DNA of 64,000 bases from Escherichia coli (GCF_002854065.1 NZ_CP024147.1), one strand, 5' to 3'. Numbered from the stretch's first letter, positions 1 through 36,618 are shown. A program made the numbers and translations. The notes: generated by a model from the letters alone, not told the origin.

Positions 1-330
1 ACATTATCCGGTGGTAACCAGCAAAAAATCCTGATTGCCAAATGCCTGGAAGCTTCGCCGCAAGTATTGATTGTCGATGAGCCGACGCGCGGCGTGGATG
101 TCTCGGCGCGTAATGATATCTACCAACTGTTGCGCAGCATCGCCGCACAGAATGTGGCTGTGCTGCTTATCTCCTCTGATCTGGAAGAGATCGAACTGAT
201 GGCAGATCGTGTGTATGTGATGCATCAGGGCGAAATTACCCACTCTGCACTGACCGGGCGCGATATTAATGTCGAGACTATTATGCGCGTTGCCTTCGGC
301 GATAGTCAGCGTCAGGAGGCGTCATGCTGA
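1..330 (+). CDS. lsrA: AI-2 ABC transporter ATP-binding subunit, 3' portion only (gene begins upstream of window)
   Basis: Frame 1 is open from base 1; translation begins [33 protein letters not shown] (ABC signature and Walker B); stop TGA 328-330 overlaps the next start; followed by the lsrCDBFG gene order. Confidence 0.85.
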
Positions 331-6523: not shown

Positions 6524-7975
6524 TTAGCACAACGGACGTACAGCTTCGCGCATCCCTTTTTCAAGAATCGCATCCAGGTCATTAGCAACCTGCTCGACCA
6601 GACCAGGCACTTGCGTCAGGTCCTGCTCCCAGTGGTCTTTTTCTGCCAACACAATCGCAACCAGTTCCTGGGTACCGATAACACGGTCACGATGCTGGCT
6701 CCAGAGTTGCTGATAACGTTCCAGCCAGTGTGCATCGTCCTGTACCGGATATGTTTCTCCGTTACGCTCACCGCGATAGAACGCAATCAATGCCGCTAAT
6801 GCGAAAGTAAGGCGCGCCGGAAGTGTGCCGTTTGCCTTCTGCCCTGCCAGTAGCTGCGGCAGGATGCGGGTACGGAACTTGGTCATACCGTTGAGCGCGA
6901 TAGACAGCAGCTGATGCTTGATGTACGGGTTACGGAAACGCCCGGTGACTGCACTGGCGAAAGACTCCAGTTCATCGCGAGGCAAATCCAGAACCGGAAT
7001 AATTTCTTCGTAGATGGCTTTTTCAACGAATGCGCAAATTTCAGCATCGTTCATCGCTTCACCTACGGTATCCAGCCCTGCCTGGAACGCCACCGGCACC
7101 AACGCGGTGTGTGCACCGTTGAGTATTGCCACTTTGCGTTCTTTATACGGTTTAATATCGTCAACAATCAGCACGTTGAGCGGATATTTGTCCAGACGCA
7201 GCTCGGTCGCTAAGGATTTCGGTCCCTGAATCACAAACAGGTAAAAGTGTTCAGCGGTGTCGAGGAAACCATCGTGATAACCCAGTTCTTCTTCCAGTTT
7301 AGCCACTTCATCACGCGGATAACCGGTAACGATACGGTCCACCAGCGTAGAACAGAAGCTGTTAGCCTGATCCAGCCATTGAATAAATGCTTCTGGCAGT
7401 GCCCACTCTTGCGCATAGCGCAGCACCAGTTCACGCAACGCGTCGCCATTGTAGTCGATCAACTCACACGGGATGATGATCCAACCTTTATCCAGCGCAC
7501 CGTTGAAATGGCTAAAACGTTCGAACAGCAGACGGGTCAGTTTTGCCGGATAACTTACCGCTGGCGCGTCATCGAATTTATCGCCCGCATGGTAGCTGAT
7601 ACCCGCTTCGGTGGTGTTAGAGAAAACAAAGCGCATTTCCGGGTTGTGCGCCAGTTTCAGGAATTCATCGTATTCACTGTAGACGCTGATTTCACGATTA
7701 ACAGAGCGAATCAGACGCGCGTCGCTGACCGCTTCCCCCTTTTCATTCAGGCCACGGATAATGGTGGTGTACAGACCATCCTGCGTGCTCAGTGACGGCG
7801 GGAATGAAGTTTCAATCGGACGAACAACGACCACACCAGAATTCAGATCGGTGTGCTCATTCAGGAGATCTATTTGCCAGTCAACAAAGGCGCGCAGGAA
7901 GTTACCTTCACCAAACTGAATGATACGTTCTGGATACTGTGCACCGGGAAAATCGCGACGATTTAGTGTTTTCAC
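6524..7975 (-). CDS. uxaB: altronate oxidoreductase (tagaturonate reductase)
   Basis: 483-aa ORF of the mannitol dehydrogenase family; hexuronate gene context. Confidence 0.9.
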
Positions 7976-8201: not shown

Positions 8202-9461
8202 TCAGACAACTTCCTCACCGTAACGCATAGTGCTGGTACGGTTGCGCCCATCTTTCTTCGAGCGATACAGACACGTATCGGCTTCGACCATCAATTTATT
8301 AAAGTCATCGGTCAGCGTTCGGTACGATGCGCGACCACTACCGACGCCAATACTTACCGTGAGATAAAGCGTTTTTTGTTGCCAGGTGAATGGTTGCAGT
8401 TCAACGCCTTTACGGATTTTTTCCGCCATTAGCAGACCATCGACAGGATTCACCGACGGCACTGCAACAGCAAATTCTTCGCCGCCCATTCGCGCCACCA
8501 GCCCCTTATCACCGACAATCTTCTGGATATGCCGGGCAAACACGCTTAACACTTTATCGCCACATTCATGTCCATAGTTATCGTTAATACTTTTGAAATA
8601 GTCGATATCAAGCAGCATGACAGTCAGATGTTGTGTCTGTTTCAGCGATGGACTTTTCAGCGCCTCATAAAGACCGGACCGTGAGTAAACCTGAGTCAGA
8701 AAATCAAAGTCGGCTCGCAGCGCAACTTGCTTCATTAGCGAATTGATCGCTGCCACGCTAAAAGAAACCATAATTGGGCATATCGCCATCGTGGCAATAC
8801 CGAGACGTGCGGAGAACATTTCCGGAATGGAGAACGGCGAACCGACCGAGATATCAATCACCGAATTAGCCACCAGTACGATTTCCACCGCACCGGTGAC
8901 AAAGGTCAACAGACATGTTACCTGCGGCGTATAGCGCACTGCACACCAGATTAATGCAGGCAGCGGGAACGCCAGACTCCCCGCTCCACCAATGACTACC
9001 GAGGCAATAACCGACACAATAAGCGCGATGGCGGGCATCATCTGTTCTGCTTTAAAGCGCGGCAGCACTCCAGGAATAGCCAACGTCAGCATACAAGGCA
9101 CGATCAACACGCCCGTTGAGAATTGCTCACTGAACCAGTCCGCAAGCAAAGGCCAGAAATCCAGACTATCAATACTGACCGAACCAATCGCCCCGACAAT
9201 AGCGCATAATAATGCGGCAATCAGACAGTAATTAAATAGCCGTAAGGCACTTACTGGCTCATACTTATTTTTCCCCAGACGCTTATCCCGCACGACCAGT
9301 AAGGCGACGGTAACAATAAACATCATATTGGAGAAATTGATAGCCAGTGAAACCAGTCCCCATTCGGTGGTTATGGCATCATAAACCAGCATCGCCACAT
9401 AACTGATCGCGTAGTAATGCAGTCGATTAAGCCAGACATAGCGGGCAAACACCCCCGCCAT
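8202..9461 (-). CDS. dgcF: membrane-anchored diguanylate cyclase (GGDEF domain)
   Basis: 419-aa ORF; multi-helix hydrophobic N-terminal region followed by a GGDEF domain with RMGGEEF active-site motif; the true start is uncertain (see finding). Confidence 0.8.
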   Translation of the reverse strand: MAGVFARYVWLNRLHYYAISYVAMLVYDAITTEWGLVSLAINFSNMMFIVTVALLVVRDKRLGKNKYEPVSALRLFNYCLIAALLCAIVGAIGSVSIDSLDFWPLLADWFSEQFSTGVLIVPCMLTLAIPGVLPRFKAEQMMPAIALIVSVIASVVIGGAGSLAFPLPALIWCAVRYTPQVTCLLTFVTGAVEIVLVANSVIDISVGSPFSIPEMFSARLGIATMAICPIMVSFSVAAINSLMKQVALRADFDFLTQVYSRSGLYEALKSPSLKQTQHLTVMLLDIDYFKSINDNYGHECGDKVLSVFARHIQKIVGDKGLVARMGGEEFAVAVPSVNPVDGLLMAEKIRKGVELQPFTWQQKTLYLTVSIGVGSGRASYRTLTDDFNKLMVEADTCLYRSKKDGRNRTSTMRYGEEVV

Positions 9462-9757
9462 TACGCCATTCAGGGCCAGAAAAGAGAAAGTTCGTGAACC
9501 AGCCGTAACTCTGCACCAATAAAATAGAACAGCGTGGTTAGCGCAAAAATAGCGATGCTATTACGTAGCAGATGACCTTCCTGGAACAAACGGAAAGTTG
9601 AAATGGGGTGTACATGCATTAATTATCTGTCCATACAATTGCGGGTGGCAATTATCTCAACGTAATAAGTAAATTCTCATAAAGGATAGCATGTTCGCTG
9701 ACAGCGGCGGCAAATAAAGGTACCCTGGGAATGCTATTTTATCGTTTTCCGCAATTC

Positions 9758-10117
9758 TCATAGCTGATTCATCTGTACAACCAGCCAGTGATAGATTACC
9801 GCCACGATATAACGTTGTTGTTCTTCGCTTAACGAAACACCCTGCGGAATGTTATGCCACTTAGCCAGACAACCGCGACAGCAGGTCGCGGTGGCGTGCT
9901 GAGCGATAAACACCGGATGCCCGCGCATGGGGGTTTGCTTACCGTCATTAGCCGGTAATGCCGGAGCAAGACGTTTAGCGACAAAATCCGCCGCATGTTG
10001 TTCGATGACTGGCGCGCCTTTCTCCAGACAATACTGACGCTCTTTCATGCCCAAACGAAAGCGAGATCGAAATTTTGAACGGGATAAACGCGCGAAGAGT
10101 GGATCGAGAGACTGCAT
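9758..10117 (-). CDS. yneG: small conserved protein (DUF4186 family)
   Basis: 119-aa ORF; its ATG overlaps the glsB stop (TTAATG), suggesting translational coupling. Confidence 0.8.
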   Translation of the reverse strand: MQSLDPLFARLSRSKFRSRFRLGMKERQYCLEKGAPVIEQHAADFVAKRLAPALPANDGKQTPMRGHPVFIAQHATATCCRGCLAKWHNIPQGVSLSEEQQRYIVAVIYHWLVVQMNQL

Positions 10118-11043
10118 TAATAAACCGAACGCCCTAACTGTTTCGTCAATTGTTCAAGGACGGCAATGCCCGCAAGCGAGTTACCTGCATCATCCAGTTC
10201 CGGACTCCAGACTGCGATGGCCATTTCATGCGGAACAATCGCCACAATACCGCCCCCAACGCCAGATTTCGCCGGTAGTCCCACCCGCCAGGCAAACTCC
10301 CCCGCGTTCTGGTACATACCACTGGTCGCCATCAGCGCGTTAATTTGCCGCGCCTGCATTGGCGTCACCACTGGTTCATCAATATGAATAGCTTTCCCCT
10401 GATTAGCCAGAAAGACAAACGTCCGGGCCAGCTCTACACAGCTCATTTTCAGAGCGCAGTAATGAAAGTAGTTTTGCAGAACGGTTGTCACGTCATGATG
10501 GAAATTGCCAAACGACTTCATCAGCCAGGCGATAGCCGCATTTCGCGCGGAATGTTCAAATTCGGAACGCGCTACCACCGTATCGTAGGAAATATCAGAC
10601 ACACCGCTTAAGCCGCGCACGACTTCCAGCATACGTTGCCGTGGTGCGCTTAATCGCCCTTGCAACATATCGCAGACCACCAGCGCACCGGCATTAATAA
10701 ACGGATTACGCGGAATACCCTGCTCCATTTCCAGTTGCACTAAAGAATTGAACGGTGATCCAGACGGATCTTTGCCGACGCGTTGCCAGATTTCCTCTTC
10801 GGAGTAATGACGCATGGCGACAACGAGACTCAGCACTTTAGAAATAGACTGAATGGAAAAACGTTCTTGCGCGTCTCCGGCCTGAAAAAGCTGTCCGTCA
10901 ACGGTACAGATAGCAATGCCCAATCGGGAACCGTCTACCGTAGCCAGCGCTGGGATATAATCCGCGACTTTACCCTGACCAATGAGCGGCCGGACTTGCC
11001 GCAAGATGTTTTCTAAAATTGCATTATCCATGGCGACTGCCAC
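10117..11043 (-). CDS. glsB: glutaminase 2
   Basis: 308-aa ORF with serine-dependent glutaminase-type motifs (SISKVLS). Confidence 0.9.
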
Positions 11044-12595: not shown

Positions 12596-13477
12596 ATGGA
12601 TCTGACCCAACTGGAGATGTTCAACGCGGTTGCCGAAGCTGGCAGCATTACGCAGGCTGCAGCAATAGTGCATCGCGTGCCGTCGAATCTCACTACCCGT
12701 CTACGCCAGCTGGAAACAGAACTGGGGGTAGATCTGTTTATTCGCGAGAATCAGCGTTTACGTCTATCTCCTGCCGGGCATAACTTTTTACGCTATAGCC
12801 AACAAATTCTCGCGTTAGTGGATGAAGCGCGGAGCGTTGTCGCTGGCGATGAGCCGCAAGGTTTATTTTCTCTGGGTTCGCTGGAAAGCACCGCAGCAGT
12901 TCGCATTCCGGCCACGCTGGCGGAATTCAACCGTCGTTATCCCAAAATTCAGTTTTCACTTTCCACCGGCCCTTCCGGCACTATGCTGGAAGGTGTGCTG
13001 GAGGGAAAACTTAATGCGGCGTTTATTGATGGACCCATTAACCATACTGCCATTGACGGGATACCGGTATACCGCGAGGAGCTGATGATCGTCACGCCAC
13101 AAGGTCATGCGCCAGTAATCCGTGCCAGTCAGGTTAATGGCAGTAACATTTATGCCTTCCGCGCCAATTGTTCGTATCGTCGCCACTTCGAGAGCTGGTT
13201 TCATGCTGACGGTGCCGCTCCGGGAACTATCCATGAGATGGAGTCTTATCACGGAATGTTGGCCTGTGTGGTCGCAGGAGCAGGTATTGCGCTTATTCCG
13301 CGCTCTATGCTGGAAAGTATGCCGGGGCATCACCAGGTTGAAGCGTGGCCGTTAGCTGAGCAATGGCGTTGGCTAACAACCTGGCTGGTCTGGCGTCGTG
13401 GTGCGAAAACGCGTCCGCTCGAGGCATTTATTCAACTACTGGATGTGCCTGACTCGACAAAACAGGGTTACCAATGA
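12596..13477 (+). CDS. yneJ: LysR-family transcriptional regulator
   Basis: 293-aa ORF with N-terminal LysR HTH; divergent from sad with a 76-bp intergenic region carrying an ATTC-N9-GAAT dyad. Confidence 0.85.
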
Positions 13478-13554
13478 GCTATTTTTGATAGTTCTTGCGG
13501 CTAATATGCTCTATATAGTGATGTTCCGATGACTTATGACTATATGGGGCAAAT

Positions 13555-14670
13555 ATGGTTACGCCAGTAAGCATCAGCAATTACATATCTCTTCCTGATG
13601 ATTTTCCCGTTCGTAATATTGCACCGCAGGTAAAAGAAGTTTTAAAGGATTTTATTGATGCACTTAGTACAATAATATGTAATGAAGAGTGGCGCACGTC
13701 TTTAAACATCAACTCAGCCACAAAAAAGATATTTAATAACCTTGACAACTTATCATATATTCAGAGGACTTCTTTTCGGGGTAACGACACGCTATACAAT
13801 GAAAAGGTTCAGTTTAAACTCACTTATCCCGCCAGGAATGGAAGACACAAAGAAAATATTGAATTTCAGGTAGTAATAAATTTAAGTCCTATTTATTTAG
13901 ATAATTTCCGCCATGATGGAGAAATTAATATTTTTTGCGCTCCCAACCCAAAGCCTGTCACTATGGGGCGCGTATTTCAGACCGGCGTCGAGCGTGTGCT
14001 CTTTCTGTTTCTGAATGATTTTATTGAACAATTTCCAATGATAAACCCTGGCGTTCCCATCAAAAGAGCGCATACACCACATATTGAACCCCTGCCTCCG
14101 GATCACCATACCGCTGCAGATTACTTACGCCAGTTTGATTTGCTTGTCCTGAATTTTATCTCTCGCGGTAATTTTGTTATACTCCCCCGATTATGGAATA
14201 ACTCTGAGGTTCACAGATGGTTCGTCAATAAAGATCCTAACTTGATCACCGCCATTCTCGACATAACGGACAGCGAATTAAAAGAGGATTTATTGCAAAG
14301 CCTGATGGATTCATTAGGTTCTAACAAACATGTACTACCCGAAGTCTGCATCTGCTTTTTATCCCTTTTAGCAGAACAAGAATCTCCTCATTTTCAGGAC
14401 TTGTTTTTATTTTTCGCCAGTATGTTATTGCACTATCACCAATTTATGAATCCCAATGAAAGTGATTTGAATAACGTGTTGATGCCAGCATCATTAAGTG
14501 ATGATAAAATTATCAAACATATGGCGCGCAAGACCCTCAAACTTTTTGTAAAAAATAAAACACCGCCAAAAGTTACTCATGAAGACCTGGTGAAAAACAG
14601 GCCTCGCTCCCCTGTCAGACCACCTATACCCGCAACCTCCAAAACGCCAGACATTCCTGATCGTCATTAA
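13555..14670 (+). CDS. yneK: uncharacterized protein, AT-rich gene
   Basis: 371-aa ORF; noticeably lower G+C than neighbours. Confidence 0.7.
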   Translation: MVTPVSISNYISLPDDFPVRNIAPQVKEVLKDFIDALSTIICNEEWRTSLNINSATKKIFNNLDNLSYIQRTSFRGNDTLYNEKVQFKLTYPARNGRHKENIEFQVVINLSPIYLDNFRHDGEINIFCAPNPKPVTMGRVFQTGVERVLFLFLNDFIEQFPMINPGVPIKRAHTPHIEPLPPDHHTAADYLRQFDLLVLNFISRGNFVILPRLWNNSEVHRWFVNKDPNLITAILDITDSELKEDLLQSLMDSLGSNKHVLPEVCICFLSLLAEQESPHFQDLFLFFASMLLHYHQFMNPNESDLNNVLMPASLSDDKIIKHMARKTLKLFVKNKTPPKVTHEDLVKNRPRSPVRPPIPATSKTPDIPDRH

Positions 14671-19125: not shown

Positions 19126-20337
19126 ATGAACTTATCCCTACGACGCTCTACCAGCGCCCTTCTTGCCTCGTCGTTGTTATTAACCATCGGACGCGGCGCT
19201 ACGCTGCCGTTTATGACCATTTACTTGAGTCGCCAGTACAGCCTGAGTGTCGATCTAATCGGTTATGCGATGACAATTGCGCTCACTATTGGCGTCGTTT
19301 TTAGCCTCGGTTTTGGTATCCTGGCGGATAAGTTCGACAAGAAACGCTATATGTTACTGGCAATTACCGCCTTCGCCAGCGGTTTTATTGCCATTCCTTT
19401 AGTGAATAACGTAGTGAATAACGTAGTGAATAACGTGACGCTGGTGGTGCTATTTTTTGCCCTTATTAACTGCGCCTATTCCGTTTTTGCTACCGTGCTG
19501 AAAGCCTGGTTTGCCGACAATCTTTCGTCCACCAGCAAAACGAAAATCTTCTCAATCAACTACACCATGCTCAACATTGGCTGGACCATCGGTCCGCCGC
19601 TCGGCACGCTGTTGGTGATGCAGAGCATCAATCTGCCCTTCTGGCTGGCAGCTATCTGTTCCGCGTTTCCCATGCTTTTCATTCAAATTTGGGTAAAGCG
19701 CAGCGAGAAAATCATCGCCACGGAAACAGGCAGTGTCTGGTCGCCGAAAGTTTTATTACAAGATAAAGCACTGTTGTGGTTTACCTGCTCTGGCTTTCTA
19801 GCTTCTTTTGTTAGCGGCGCATTTGCTTCATGCATTTCACAATATGTGATGGTGATTGCTGATGGGGATTTTGCCGAAAAGGTGGTCGCGGTTGTTCTTC
19901 CGGTGAATGCTGCCATGGTGGTTACGTTGCAATATTCCGTGGGCCGCCGACTTAACCCGGCTAACATCCGCGCGCTGATGACAGCAGGCACCCTCTGTTT
20001 CGTCATCGGTCTGGTCGGTTTTATTTTTTCCGGCAACAGCCTGCTATTGTGGGGTATGTCAGCTGCGGTATTTACTGTCGGTGAAATCATTTATGCGCCG
20101 GGCGAGTATATGTTGATTGACCATATTGCGCCGCCAGGAATGAAAGCCAGCTATTTTTCTGCCCAGTCTTTAGGCTGGCTTGGTGCCGCGATTAACCCAT
20201 TAGTGAGCGGCGTAGTGCTAACCAGCCTGCCGCCTTCCTCGCTGTTTATCATCTTAGCGTTGGTGATCATTGCTGCGTGGGTGCTGATGTTAAAAGGGAT
20301 TCGTGCAAAACCGTGGGGGCAGCCCGCGCTTTGTTGA
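19126..20337 (+). CDS. ydeE: MFS transporter
   Basis: 403-aa polytopic ORF; contains an in-frame 12-bp x3 tandem repeat (see repeat feature). Confidence 0.85.
   Translation: MNLSLRRSTSALLASSLLLTIGRGATLPFMTIYLSRQYSLSVDLIGYAMTIALTIGVVFSLGFGILADKFDKKRYMLLAITAFASGFIAIPLVNNVVNNVVNNVTLVVLFFALINCAYSVFATVLKAWFADNLSSTSKTKIFSINYTMLNIGWTIGPPLGTLLVMQSINLPFWLAAICSAFPMLFIQIWVKRSEKIIATETGSVWSPKVLLQDKALLWFTCSGFLASFVSGAFASCISQYVMVIADGDFAEKVVAVVLPVNAAMVVTLQYSVGRRLNPANIRALMTAGTLCFVIGLVGFIFSGNSLLLWGMSAAVFTVGEIIYAPGEYMLIDHIAPPGMKASYFSAQSLGWLGAAINPLVSGVVLTSLPPSSLFIILALVIIAAWVLMLKGIRAKPWGQPALC
19402..19437 (+). repeat. in-frame tandem repeat, 3 copies of a 12-bp unit (GTGAATAACGTA; third copy ends GTG) encoding VNNV x3 within ydeE
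   Basis: Direct reading of 19402-19437; repeat is in the ydeE reading frame. Confidence 0.9.
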
Positions 20338-33406: not shown

Positions 33407-34105
33407 TCACTGCGAAAGTTTGTTAATGGAAAGGAAGCCGCCAAAGTTGCCGACGTTATTGCGAAACTTACAGCCGCTCAGGCATTTGCTGCATTTATCC
33501 TTCGTGATATCGGACGTCGGCTGATCATATTCATCCGCGACCGCCGGACCGTGATAACCGCACTCATCACCGCGATAGGTCCAGGTGCAGGTGTTGGCCA
33601 GCATGATACGTCCCGGAAAAACGGCACCGTCCGTTTCCGTCGGCGTGGACAGTACAAAAGAGGCACTGACCGCGCTCAGTTCGCTGCACTGCTCGATGCG
33701 CCAGCGGCTGATCACCTCCTGCTCCGGATCGGCGTCACTGTTTCCGTTGACGAAGTTCACCGCATCCAGAAAACGGGCGTAAACCTTACGCCGGACCACC
33801 GTTCCTCCGACCAGACTCTGCAGGTCTTCCGCCATCCCGGTGACCATGCCGTGCAGGTTAGAAACCGTCAGTGTCGGACGGGCAGCACTGCCTTTGCCGT
33901 TCAGTTCAAATCCCGTCCCCTGAATGGGATACGCCTGATACTGTCGCCCCTGCCAGGTGACCGGCTCACCTTTATCGTTCTGCTCATTACAGAAAAAGTA
34001 GCGTTCCCCGCCTACCTCGGTCAGGTCGATTTCCCAGAGCACCACCTGGGCTGACTGAGTGAGGCGTGTCGTCTCATGATGTGTTTCCTGTGGAATATCC
34101 TGCAT
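33407..34105 (-). CDS. minor tail protein L (lambda L homologue)
   Basis: 232 aa, same length as lambda L; position between M and K. Confidence 0.85.
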   Translation of the reverse strand: MQDIPQETHHETTRLTQSAQVVLWEIDLTEVGGERYFFCNEQNDKGEPVTWQGRQYQAYPIQGTGFELNGKGSAARPTLTVSNLHGMVTGMAEDLQSLVGGTVVRRKVYARFLDAVNFVNGNSDADPEQEVISRWRIEQCSELSAVSASFVLSTPTETDGAVFPGRIMLANTCTWTYRGDECGYHGPAVADEYDQPTSDITKDKCSKCLSGCKFRNNVGNFGGFLSINKLSQ

Positions 34106-34114
34106 CAGAGACTC

Positions 34115-34444
34115 CTATGCCACGACCTGTTCAAAATCTGCCGTTATGGTTACCCACAACGCCCCCACGCTTGCCGACCATTTACGACAAACCACCCTGA
34201 TCGGCTTCCAGTCATAAGGTGGCGTCCACTGAAATGCGCGGACGCCACCGTGCCGTTCCAGAAAGGCTTTTAAAGATGGGTGTTCACATTTACGAACACG
34301 TATAGTCACGCTGTAAATCGACAACTGGTTATTCAGTCCCGCCGCACGACGCTGTTCATAACCATCGCCCAGCTTCACTGTCACCACTTTCGGCTCTGAT
34401 ACCACATTCATATCCGGGCGCACTTTCCAGTGAAACGTCTCCAT
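34115..34444 (-). CDS. minor tail protein M (lambda M homologue)
   Basis: 109 aa; METFHWKVRPDMNVVSEPKV... closely resembles lambda M. Confidence 0.85.
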   Translation of the reverse strand: METFHWKVRPDMNVVSEPKVVTVKLGDGYEQRRAAGLNNQLSIYSVTIRVRKCEHPSLKAFLERHGGVRAFQWTPPYDWKPIRVVCRKWSASVGALWVTITADFEQVVA

Positions 34445-36618
34445 TACCGATATGCTCCACTTAACCGACCACCATCACGGGCCTGCTGTTGCATAAAGTC
34501 CGCTGCCGCTTTTTTCCCAAGGTCATAAACCACCTTCAGGGCAGCCGGACCTATCTGCCCGTTCGTGCCATCGTTATTGATCTCGATGTTGTACTGCGGG
34601 GCAAACATCGCCATACCTGAACCACCAATATCCGCCACAACCCCCAGCTTACCGTCAGCACCACGACGCAGTGGCAGAATGGCTTCAGGTCCAGCTTCCC
34701 CCATCACACCCGCGCCTTTTGCAAAAGCAAAAAACGTCGGACGGTTAACCACCGTGCCACTGTAACGACTCAAATCAGCAGACTGATAAATCCCCCCATT
34801 GGCATTCAGGGAAAGGCTGCTGAGATCAAATCCCAGTACACTGCCAATCCCTTTTATCGATTTCATCATGGTTGCCTGCGCCAGGATTTTCGCCATATCT
34901 GACAGCACCGAAGAGGTGAAGGATTTGAAGTTGAGTTTGCCGGTAGTGACAAAAGTTGCCAGGCCATTTCCCATGTTGCTGAAGGCTGATGAGAACACCT
35001 GTTCTGCTGTTCCTGCCGTATTGTCTGCATCCACGGTAAAATCCTGAAATGCACGCAGGACTCCGTTTTTCCAGTTACCCTGCACAACTTCAAGCTGTTG
35101 CCAGTAACGGCGATTCTCATTCAGTTGTCGGTTCAGGCTCTCCGTCAGCGCCTGCTCGGCCTTTCTGTAGTCATCCGTGTTATATGTCCCTTTCTGCTCA
35201 CTATCCCGCCTCAACTGCTCCAGCTGTTGCTGGTATTTCTGGCGAAGACTCAGTTGTACCTGATATCGCTGCCGCTGCTGATCACCCATACCCACCGTGG
35301 CGATATCCAGGTCATGTTGCTGACGCTGAGCGCGCTCTTCTTCAGCCAGTTGACTGGTCAGCTGAATTGTTTTTTTCTTCAGATCGTTGAGTGCCGTCTG
35401 TTTCTGAAGCTCCTGCTGTTTTACATCCAGCAGCGTCAGTGCCTGAATCAGTTCATCTTTACGGGCCAGCACACTCTTTTCATCTGCCGTCAGTTTTTTC
35501 CCGTCCAGATCGCTGATGCGCTGCTGCAGAGCCAGAAGCTGTTTATGCGCTTCTGTCATCTTTTCAGTGGCAATGCCTGCTGACTGTCTTGCAGCAGCAA
35601 TCTGTCCTTCCACCTGTGCCTGTTGCTGACTGTACTGCAGCAATAACCGGGTGGCCTCATCATTACGGGGTTCGCGTGTTTTTTTCTTACCGGATGCCAG
35701 GGCTTTCTCGTAACGTTCATTTTCACGTTGTATCGCCGCATCCCTGACAGCCTGATCGGCGTACTGCATGGCATTAATACGCGCAATTTCACGCTGATGT
35801 CGTGCTGCTTCCGTTTCATTCATCCGGTTCAGTGCAGCATTTTCAGCATTACGGCGTTTCTGTTGCTCCTGATAATTCCGCTCTGCCTGCTCTTTTGCAT
35901 CCTGCAAATCCTTCTGGCGTTTTTTCTCCTGAAGCTCGTTAAGACGCTGCTGATCGTACTCAACCTGAGAAGATGATGCCGTCCAGGGGAGTCTTTTCAC
36001 CCGCGACACTTTCTCCTGTAAAGCGGAAATCTGTTCATCCAGCGAGTCTTCACGACCAATATTCATGGCCGCATCCCAGAAACGACTCCATAAATCAGAC
36101 AGATACTTCAGCGTACTGCCCAGCGCATTGAGGTTATTATCAATATCCGCAGTACGCCGACCGGTTTCCTCTGCCAGTGCAGACATGGCTATCCGTGCCG
36201 CATCACTGGACCGCCCCTGTTCCCCAAGGACGCGTATCTGTTCAAGCTGAGTGGCAGTAAGAAAATGCAGCTCATTGTCCAGAGCCTTCGCGGCATTTAC
36301 AGGATCATCCTTCAGCCGCTTAAACTGATTTATGGTATCGCTGACCGACTGGCCAACCGATCGCTCCATCTGTGCGGCAGCTCTCGCCACCATACGGGAT
36401 GGATCATGAACAGAGTCTGCTGCCTCATGCTTCACACTAAACAGGGCTGGCCCGACATGGTGCAGGGCGTAAACGGGGTTCCCCCTGACAGTCGCAGCCA
36501 CAGGAGTGTTGGCCGCGAGGAGCCGTTTTTTTACTGTGTCCCGGTGAAGCCCAAAGGCCTCAGCGATTTTAAAAACACTCCAGTAATAAGCATCACCGAT
36601 CCCGCTCACATTTGACAT
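34444..36618 (-). CDS. chimeric ORF: Nu1-like terminase small-subunit N-terminal DNA-binding region fused to lambda H-like tail tape measure (central and C-terminal parts)
   Basis: C-terminus INNDGTNGQIGPAALKVVYD...RDGGRLSGAYR matches the lambda H C-terminus; glutamine-rich coiled-coil middle; N-terminal ~100 aa has a Nu1-like winged-HTH pattern; ATG at 36618 has GGAG 6 nt upstream (track ORF extends to 36648). Confidence 0.7.
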   Translation of the reverse strand: MSNVSGIGDAYYWSVFKIAEAFGLHRDTVKKRLLAANTPVAATVRGNPVYALHHVGPALFSVKHEAADSVHDPSRMVARAAAQMERSVGQSVSDTINQFKRLKDDPVNAAKALDNELHFLTATQLEQIRVLGEQGRSSDAARIAMSALAEETGRRTADIDNNLNALGSTLKYLSDLWSRFWDAAMNIGREDSLDEQISALQEKVSRVKRLPWTASSSQVEYDQQRLNELQEKKRQKDLQDAKEQAERNYQEQQKRRNAENAALNRMNETEAARHQREIARINAMQYADQAVRDAAIQRENERYEKALASGKKKTREPRNDEATRLLLQYSQQQAQVEGQIAAARQSAGIATEKMTEAHKQLLALQQRISDLDGKKLTADEKSVLARKDELIQALTLLDVKQQELQKQTALNDLKKKTIQLTSQLAEEERAQRQQHDLDIATVGMGDQQRQRYQVQLSLRQKYQQQLEQLRRDSEQKGTYNTDDYRKAEQALTESLNRQLNENRRYWQQLEVVQGNWKNGVLRAFQDFTVDADNTAGTAEQVFSSAFSNMGNGLATFVTTGKLNFKSFTSSVLSDMAKILAQATMMKSIKGIGSVLGFDLSSLSLNANGGIYQSADLSRYSGTVVNRPTFFAFAKGAGVMGEAGPEAILPLRRGADGKLGVVADIGGSGMAMFAPQYNIEINNDGTNGQIGPAALKVVYDLGKKAAADFMQQQARDGGRLSGAYR

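Follow-up and report, generated by a model that had tools for sequence, protein, structure and literature searches.

A single-base deletion divides the diguanylate cyclase gene dgcF in one clonal lineage of Escherichia coli

In the Escherichia coli sequence analysed here (64,000 nucleotides of NZ_CP024147.1, assembly GCF_002854065.1; hereafter the window), the gene for the diguanylate cyclase DgcF (YneF) carries a real, vertically inherited deletion of a single G and is very probably a recent loss-of-function pseudogene of one clonal lineage, one of many independent inactivations of dgcF. The missing base belongs to the codon of Pro49, the deletion is shared by descent among closely related strains, the region that it interrupts is conserved across genera, and the encoded protein is otherwise unaltered at the amino-acid level.

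The locus lies on the minus strand, as do all dgcF features described below, in the E. coli order sad-glsB-yneG-dgcF-uxaB, with gene names taken from matching RefSeq records. In the window, dgcF is flanked by uxaB (6524-7975) and yneG (DUF4186; 9758-10117), and glsB (10117-11043) lies beyond yneG; according to the window ORFs and the annotation of matching records, this position between yneG and uxaB, downstream of glsB, is kept as in the DgcF (YneF) orthologue group. The whole pseudogene occupies 8202-9619 (1418 nt, one fewer than the 1419 nt of intact alleles). Within it we confirm the two ORFs reported in the earlier note: a 49-codon ORF from the ATG at 9619 to the TGA at 9472-9470, whose product is MHVHPISTFRLFQEGHLLRNSIAIFALTTLFYFIGAELRLVHELSLFWP, and a 419-codon GGDEF ORF at 8202-9461, with its stop at 8202-8204. 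The first (9470-9619) corresponds to native DgcF residues 1-49 followed by a premature stop, and the second to residues 54-472, read from an internal methionine, Met54, that lacks a Shine-Dalgarno sequence. The two had been described as overlapping, which holds when the frame of the 419-codon ORF is followed from stop to stop, since it is open back to 9557 and so runs into the stub, but not for the ATG-to-stop ORFs, which are separated by 8 nt between the TGA and ATG 9461. Upstream, ~25-30 nt before the native ATG, a candidate promoter assigned purely by consensus match (ATGAGA, an 18-nt spacer and TG-GATAAT) spans 9651-9680.

The lesion itself was located by DNA alignment to intact alleles, further carriers and non-carriers. 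Intact alleles such as those of UMNK88, O157:H7 7409 and FDAARGOS_536 are 1419 bp long, encode 472 amino acids and start at the ATG that corresponds to window position 9619; relative to these three, the window gene is exactly one base shorter, with a single gap, which bears out the earlier proposal of a 1-nt indel in an originally longer membrane sensor. Where the intact alleles read TGG CCG CTG AAT GGC GTA ATG, the window has TGG CC- CTG AAT and thus TGG CCC TGA AT: a G has been deleted from the Pro49 codon between 9474 and 9473, Pro49 itself is kept (CCG to CCC), with a TGA now following it directly. Across the lesion, the deleted allele (delG) reads TGGCCCTGA. In the three intact strains the 472-residue protein begins MHVHPISTFRLFQEGH and continues LSLFWPLNGVMAGVFARY in one frame, so that MHVHPIS...LSLFWPLNGVMAGVF is read without interruption; a single ORF of ~472 amino acids beginning MHVHPIS... 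is absent from the window, where the frame breaks after codon 49.

This position differs from the one first suspected, an A4/T4 tract at 9521-9524 (A4 on the plus strand, T4 on the coding strand). The stretch 9500-9540 is unchanged in intact alleles, window positions 9476-9619 are identical to the intact UMNK88 allele, and the deletion site lies ~48 nt downstream of the T4 tract, directly before the TGA. Its ancestral context, CCGC, is no homopolymer. The two frames do both read L-F-Y near the tract, as had been remarked, but from offset rather than identical nucleotides (9532-9524, CTG TTC TAT, and 9527-9519, CTA TTT TAT); the coincidence is a matter of chance that follows from the local T-rich sequence and does not mark the indel.

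Once the G is restored, the 472-residue protein matches exactly an intact allele that at least 1000 contigs carry in a collection of 15 billion proteins. The deletion is thus the sole amino-acid-level difference from a common intact allele, which points to a recent event. Of 5,426 complete E. coli genomes surveyed by megablast with window positions 9800-8150, 5,414 contain the locus; a full-length match is mostly 1652 bases long, one more than the 1651 of the query, and the intact gene in these matches is annotated as a "sensor domain-containing diguanylate cyclase". The window gene is a pseudogene of the DgcF (YneF) orthologue group.

The part of the protein that the deletion interrupts is conserved well beyond E. 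coli. A search with the repaired N-terminal 304 residues returned 612 relatives, among them single-ORF orthologues of 472-484 amino acids from E. fergusonii, Citrobacter, Enterobacter and Lelliottia that cover 97-100% of the query, with identities to it of 86-88% in E. fergusonii, 76-84% in Citrobacter and 71-75% in Enterobacter and Lelliottia. In a ten-sequence alignment the start methionines share one column, residues 18-53 are nearly invariant, and the motif L44-S-L-F-W-P-L-N-G-V53, which contains the lesion, is invariant. Even among 76 family proteins with 26-40% identity, conservation of W48, P49 and N51 reaches at least 90%, with the consensus FWPANA. An ORF of 49 codons would by itself attract no notice, but since its protein sequence is conserved across genera, the stub is more than a chance ORF. 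Rather than starting at the downstream ATG with an unconserved sequence before it, orthologues have their start methionine at the equivalent of 9619, and the frames part at Pro49; the suggestion in the earlier note of a mis-started N-terminus accordingly finds no support. Met54, for its part, is replaced by Ile in Citrobacter and by Leu in the family consensus.

An AlphaFold2 (AF2) model built on the 76-sequence alignment (mean pLDDT 91.9, pTM 0.85) places these residues in a structural context; an earlier model from a ten-sequence alignment, with pLDDT below 50 in the membrane domain, was set aside. Hydropathy and the AF2 model together outline a polytopic helical membrane domain from about residue 17 to residue 300 (8721-9571), which the lesion splits, and in the model a long helix (residues 265-304) links this domain to the GGDEF domain. 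Helix 1 is modelled at residues 17-37 (9509-9571), in agreement with a hydropathy peak at residues 22-40, and helix 2 begins at Pro49, so that the stub holds the first transmembrane helix (TM1) only and strands it from the rest of the bundle. Met54 lies within helix 2, and this placement, together with the Ile and Leu found in relatives, argues that it is no ancestral start.

The DgcF N-terminal domain has no Pfam match, even at E <= 10, and no NCBIfam name. Among the 76 family members at 26-40% identity, however, 48 match the MASE1 profile (PF05231; best E = 3e-11), most of them below the gathering score of 29.8 bits, and the matches span profile positions ~5-270, starting at the first helix. 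By this transitive, sub-threshold sequence evidence, the sensor domain of DgcF appears MASE1-like, at best as a divergent subfamily rather than an established member. The GGDEF domain (residues 303-461 of the full-length protein; 8238-8714; PF00990, E = 1.9e-40) is intact, and so is its active-site motif GGEEF (G379-F383; 8472-8486), identified from the sequence, from invariant alignment columns and from the family consensus. The I-site motif RxxD is absent: VGDKGLVARM precedes GGEEF where the family consensus has LRxxDLxGRxGGEEF, in keeping with the published description of full-length YneF as having an intact A-site and no I-site (PMC4287979).

Two other proteins in the searches, of 514 and 460 residues (P0008 and P0009), combine the N-terminal ~300 amino acids of DgcF (97% identity) with a C-terminal domain of HipA (PF07804). 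In the genome of strain CUWW06, hipA lies ~19 kb downstream of dgcF on the same strand, and the fusions therefore probably arose through a large deletion in which uxaB and the lsr operon were lost.

The loss of a G from the Pro49 codon has thus been inherited vertically. Translation from ATG 9619 stops at the TGA right after Pro49 and yields a 49-residue stub with TM1 only; residues 54-472 stay open in another frame behind an internal methionine without a ribosome-binding site, and the 419 codons encode what remains of the MASE1-like sensor together with the intact GGDEF domain. With a stop directly after Pro49 and a different frame downstream, full-length DgcF cannot be made, and loss of DgcF function in the delG lineage is most likely. 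Read-through of the stop was considered as a way around this and rejected, given that a ribosome passing the TGA meets a TAA two codons later.

It is unlikely, but worth weighing, that the gene is split and still active, with ribosomes reinitiating at ATG 9461 after the stub and producing DgcF without residues 1-53. They might do so directly, across the 8 nt, or by way of a relay, ATG-GCG-TAATG: the mRNA reads UGA-AUG-GCG-UAAUG, in which a mini-ORF, ATG GCG TAA (9461-9469, read from the sequence), abuts the TGA at 9472-9470 with its ATG at 9469, and its TAA overlaps the next ATG (TAATG, 9463-9459). Such a product would keep its GGDEF domain and make c-di-GMP, possibly uncoupled from the sensor, and the TM1 peptide might be made separately. 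The stop/start geometry of a coupled pair, the integrity of the GGDEF domain and of GGEEF, and the finding that, a noisy NCTC assembly excepted, all complete carrier loci have kept the 419-codon ORF open are all consistent with this; moreover, Shigella diguanylate cyclase pseudogenes with stops ahead of GGDEF still raised c-di-GMP when expressed (PMC11327459). Yet the resemblance to a coupled pair is one of geometry, and the motif consists of native in-frame codons (AAT GGC GTA ATG) read out of frame. No Shine-Dalgarno sequence precedes ATG 9461, where pairing with the anti-Shine-Dalgarno sequence reaches -1.5 kcal/mol at best, against -5.3 to -6.9 kcal/mol for uxaB and glsB, and expression of the native gene is very low to begin with, and mainly RpoS-dependent (PMC4287979). 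As described above, Met54 is a non-conserved residue inside helix 2, and to judge from the model, what is predicted to be a bundle of 8-10 helices would probably have its topology upset by the loss of TM1 and of the invariant FWPxN motif. Nor does the open reading frame speak for selection, the carriers being too closely related; conversely, since the ORF shows no further decay in them beyond delG, the noisy NCTC assembly aside, there is no decay to prove neutrality either.

Inactivation of dgcF by other routes is common in E. coli. K-12 lacks the equivalent of window positions 9188-9684 (497 bp), comprising the promoter-proximal region, the start codon and ~144 codons, and with them the candidate promoter at 9651-9680; this 5' deletion of K-12 dgcF (yneF, b1522) has been reported to have caused misannotation of the start codon and absence of expression (PMC4287979, PMC5635695). 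Coverage of the locus falls below 80% in about 23% of complete genomes, and those sampled, K-12 strains included, show the same two-piece match of 70%. At least four other independent lesions leave the same 419-residue ORF as the window: W48* (AP021894), Q13*, a 29-bp deletion and the loss of an A from the Tyr32 codon. Two more lesions come from database entries for N-terminal fragments: a 10-nt deletion, deduced from the fragment sequence and likewise predicted to leave the ORF from Met54, and a G inserted into a run of five G. The four lesions and the 10-nt deletion stand on different haplotypes, 33-50 substitutions per 4 kb away from the window. Frameshifted tails and in-frame deletions also occur farther downstream, from about residue 169 to residue 334. 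The Tyr32 lesion, which is absent from the window, removes an A from TAT at about window position 9525 and adjoins the T4 tract; it was found in a Logan assembly (SRR24224901, locus L012) on an O157-like haplotype.

That W48*, the 10-nt deletion and the Tyr32 deletion all stop translation just before Met54 could be taken to favour reinitiation there, and one might go further and see in such recurrent stops a route to a sensor-decoupled DgcF without residues 1-53, formed by termination-reinitiation at the UGAAUG...UAAUG relay. From the analysis of these alleles we consider that route improbable. The N-terminal cluster arises because the search used the exact 419-residue product, an ascertainment effect, and lesions are spread over the whole length of dgcF. 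A hotspot of mutation or selection before Met54 was likewise rejected as unsupported, with truncations and internal deletions found elsewhere in the gene.

The inheritance of the deletion also speaks for a pseudogene. With a 70-nt probe across the lesion, 4,193 complete genomes gave a match, only two of them at 100%: CUWW06, from wastewater in Thailand, and strain 100416, from human stool in The Gambia. In both, PGAP annotates a single "frameshifted" CDS equal to 9619-8202, and over the first 25 kb of the window these two also resemble it most closely (100% and 99.9% identity, respectively, the next best being 98.9%). In the 15-billion-protein collection the exact 49-residue product occurs on 195 contigs and the exact 419-residue product on 139, and the contigs with the deletion stem from NCBI drafts, Logan assemblies of SRA runs, ENA gut metagenomes and one NCTC genome. 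All eleven carrier loci lie within 1-4 substitutions per 4-5 kb of the window, whereas non-carriers show 33-112; one of the eleven (L021), cut by a contig end and with its ORF unreadable for that reason, shows one substitution in 2.7 kb. The allele is thus an indel relative to intact orthologues that has been inherited across independent assemblies of related strains, as in a frameshift pseudogene, and delG is one inherited event marking a tight clone, not an artefact.

An error of sequencing or assembly, with an intact dgcF in the source and the missing G a slip of base calling, has accordingly very little to commend it. No type of assembly error is commoner than the single-base indel, few complete genomes have the allele (2 of ~4,190), and the NCTC carrier (L019) has extra indels nearby; but the ancestral CCGC is not a homopolymer, the same deletion recurs in at least 11 loci from different sources and pipelines (RefSeq genomes from Thailand and The Gambia, NCBI drafts, Logan, ENA gut metagenomes and NCTC), it is confined to the haplotype closest to the window, and 195 contigs encode the exact 49-residue product.

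Individual carriers show further peculiarities. Compared with the window, the NCTC locus (UGBN01000001.1) shows three additional single-base gaps within 5.1 kb, which truncate glsB (284 aa) and split the 419-residue ORF into 141 and 279 residues; they are probably long-read assembly noise rather than further decay. CUWW06 has ~776 extra bases within the first 25 kb of the window, most likely the IS1 annotated inside its ydeE, a gene that is an open 403-codon ORF in the window (19126-20337, plus strand) and carries an "internal stop" in strain 100416. The gene lsrA, for the ATPase of the autoinducer-2 ABC transporter, is annotated as "frameshifted" in both sister genomes (13028-14562 in locus L007 and 33711-35245 in locus L008); window positions 1-330 hold just its last ~330 nt, the 3' end.

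There is next to no likelihood that the gene truly starts at ATG 9461 behind a chance or unrelated small ORF, as those GenBank records imply that call the 419-residue ORF a "GGDEF domain-containing protein" and the 49-residue one a "hypothetical protein", or that a programmed frameshift joins the two frames: orthologues are single in-frame ORFs of 472-484 residues with the stub sequence conserved, restoring the frame would take a -1 shift at CCC-UGA where no X XXY YYZ heptamer stands in frame, a +1 shift enters the third frame and stops after 17 codons, and the arrangement is confined to one clone rather than conserved.

The dgcF allele of the window is thus an unexceptional frameshift pseudogene, specific to one lineage, of a gene whose full-length and truncated forms were known before, and the identical sequence has already been labelled as frameshifted by PGAP. 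The allele extends a known pattern in which dgcF is dispensable and has been lost repeatedly in E. coli. The "hypothetical protein" of 49 residues and the "GGDEF domain-containing protein" of 419 residues found in some GenBank records are, in the delG lineage, the halves of one broken gene, and this lineage is most likely without one of E. coli's accessory diguanylate cyclases. The sensor of DgcF, which a 2014 description set apart from every other E. coli protein, appears to be of a divergent MASE1 type, and the deletion strikes its most conserved motif, FWPxN.

Set beside known systems, the window allele is closest to the intact DgcF (YneF) of EAEC 55989 (O104:H4), EHEC O157:H7 and Shigella flexneri (Richter et al. 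2014, PMC4287979; Ojha et al. 2024, PMC11327459), with the same locus, the same 472 amino acids once the G is restored, and the same architecture of a ~300-residue hydrophobic N-terminus followed by GGDEF; it differs in that the frame breaks after codon 49. Like MASE1 (PF05231, as in DgcE), the sensor of DgcF is a multi-helix integral membrane domain N-terminally fused to GGDEF, although DgcF itself gives no Pfam match at E <= 10 and most of its relatives stay below threshold. The degenerate dgcE, dgcQ and dgcN of Shigella flexneri (PMC11327459) resemble the window in that an intact GGDEF domain is preceded by a premature stop, with an in-frame start nearby, and the stop-312/AUG-314 pattern of dgcQ in EAEC and Shigella would parallel reinitiation at Met54 of DgcF; in contrast, residual c-di-GMP synthesis was measured for the Shigella genes, whereas the window allele is known from its sequence, and the sensor domains differ. 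The K-12 allele is likewise a natural inactivation that leaves a GGDEF remainder, but it lacks 497 bp where the window lacks a single base. The other N-terminal lesions of dgcF in E. coli and Shigella fit, as does the window, a recurrent loss of this gene, reached through different mutations on different haplotypes.
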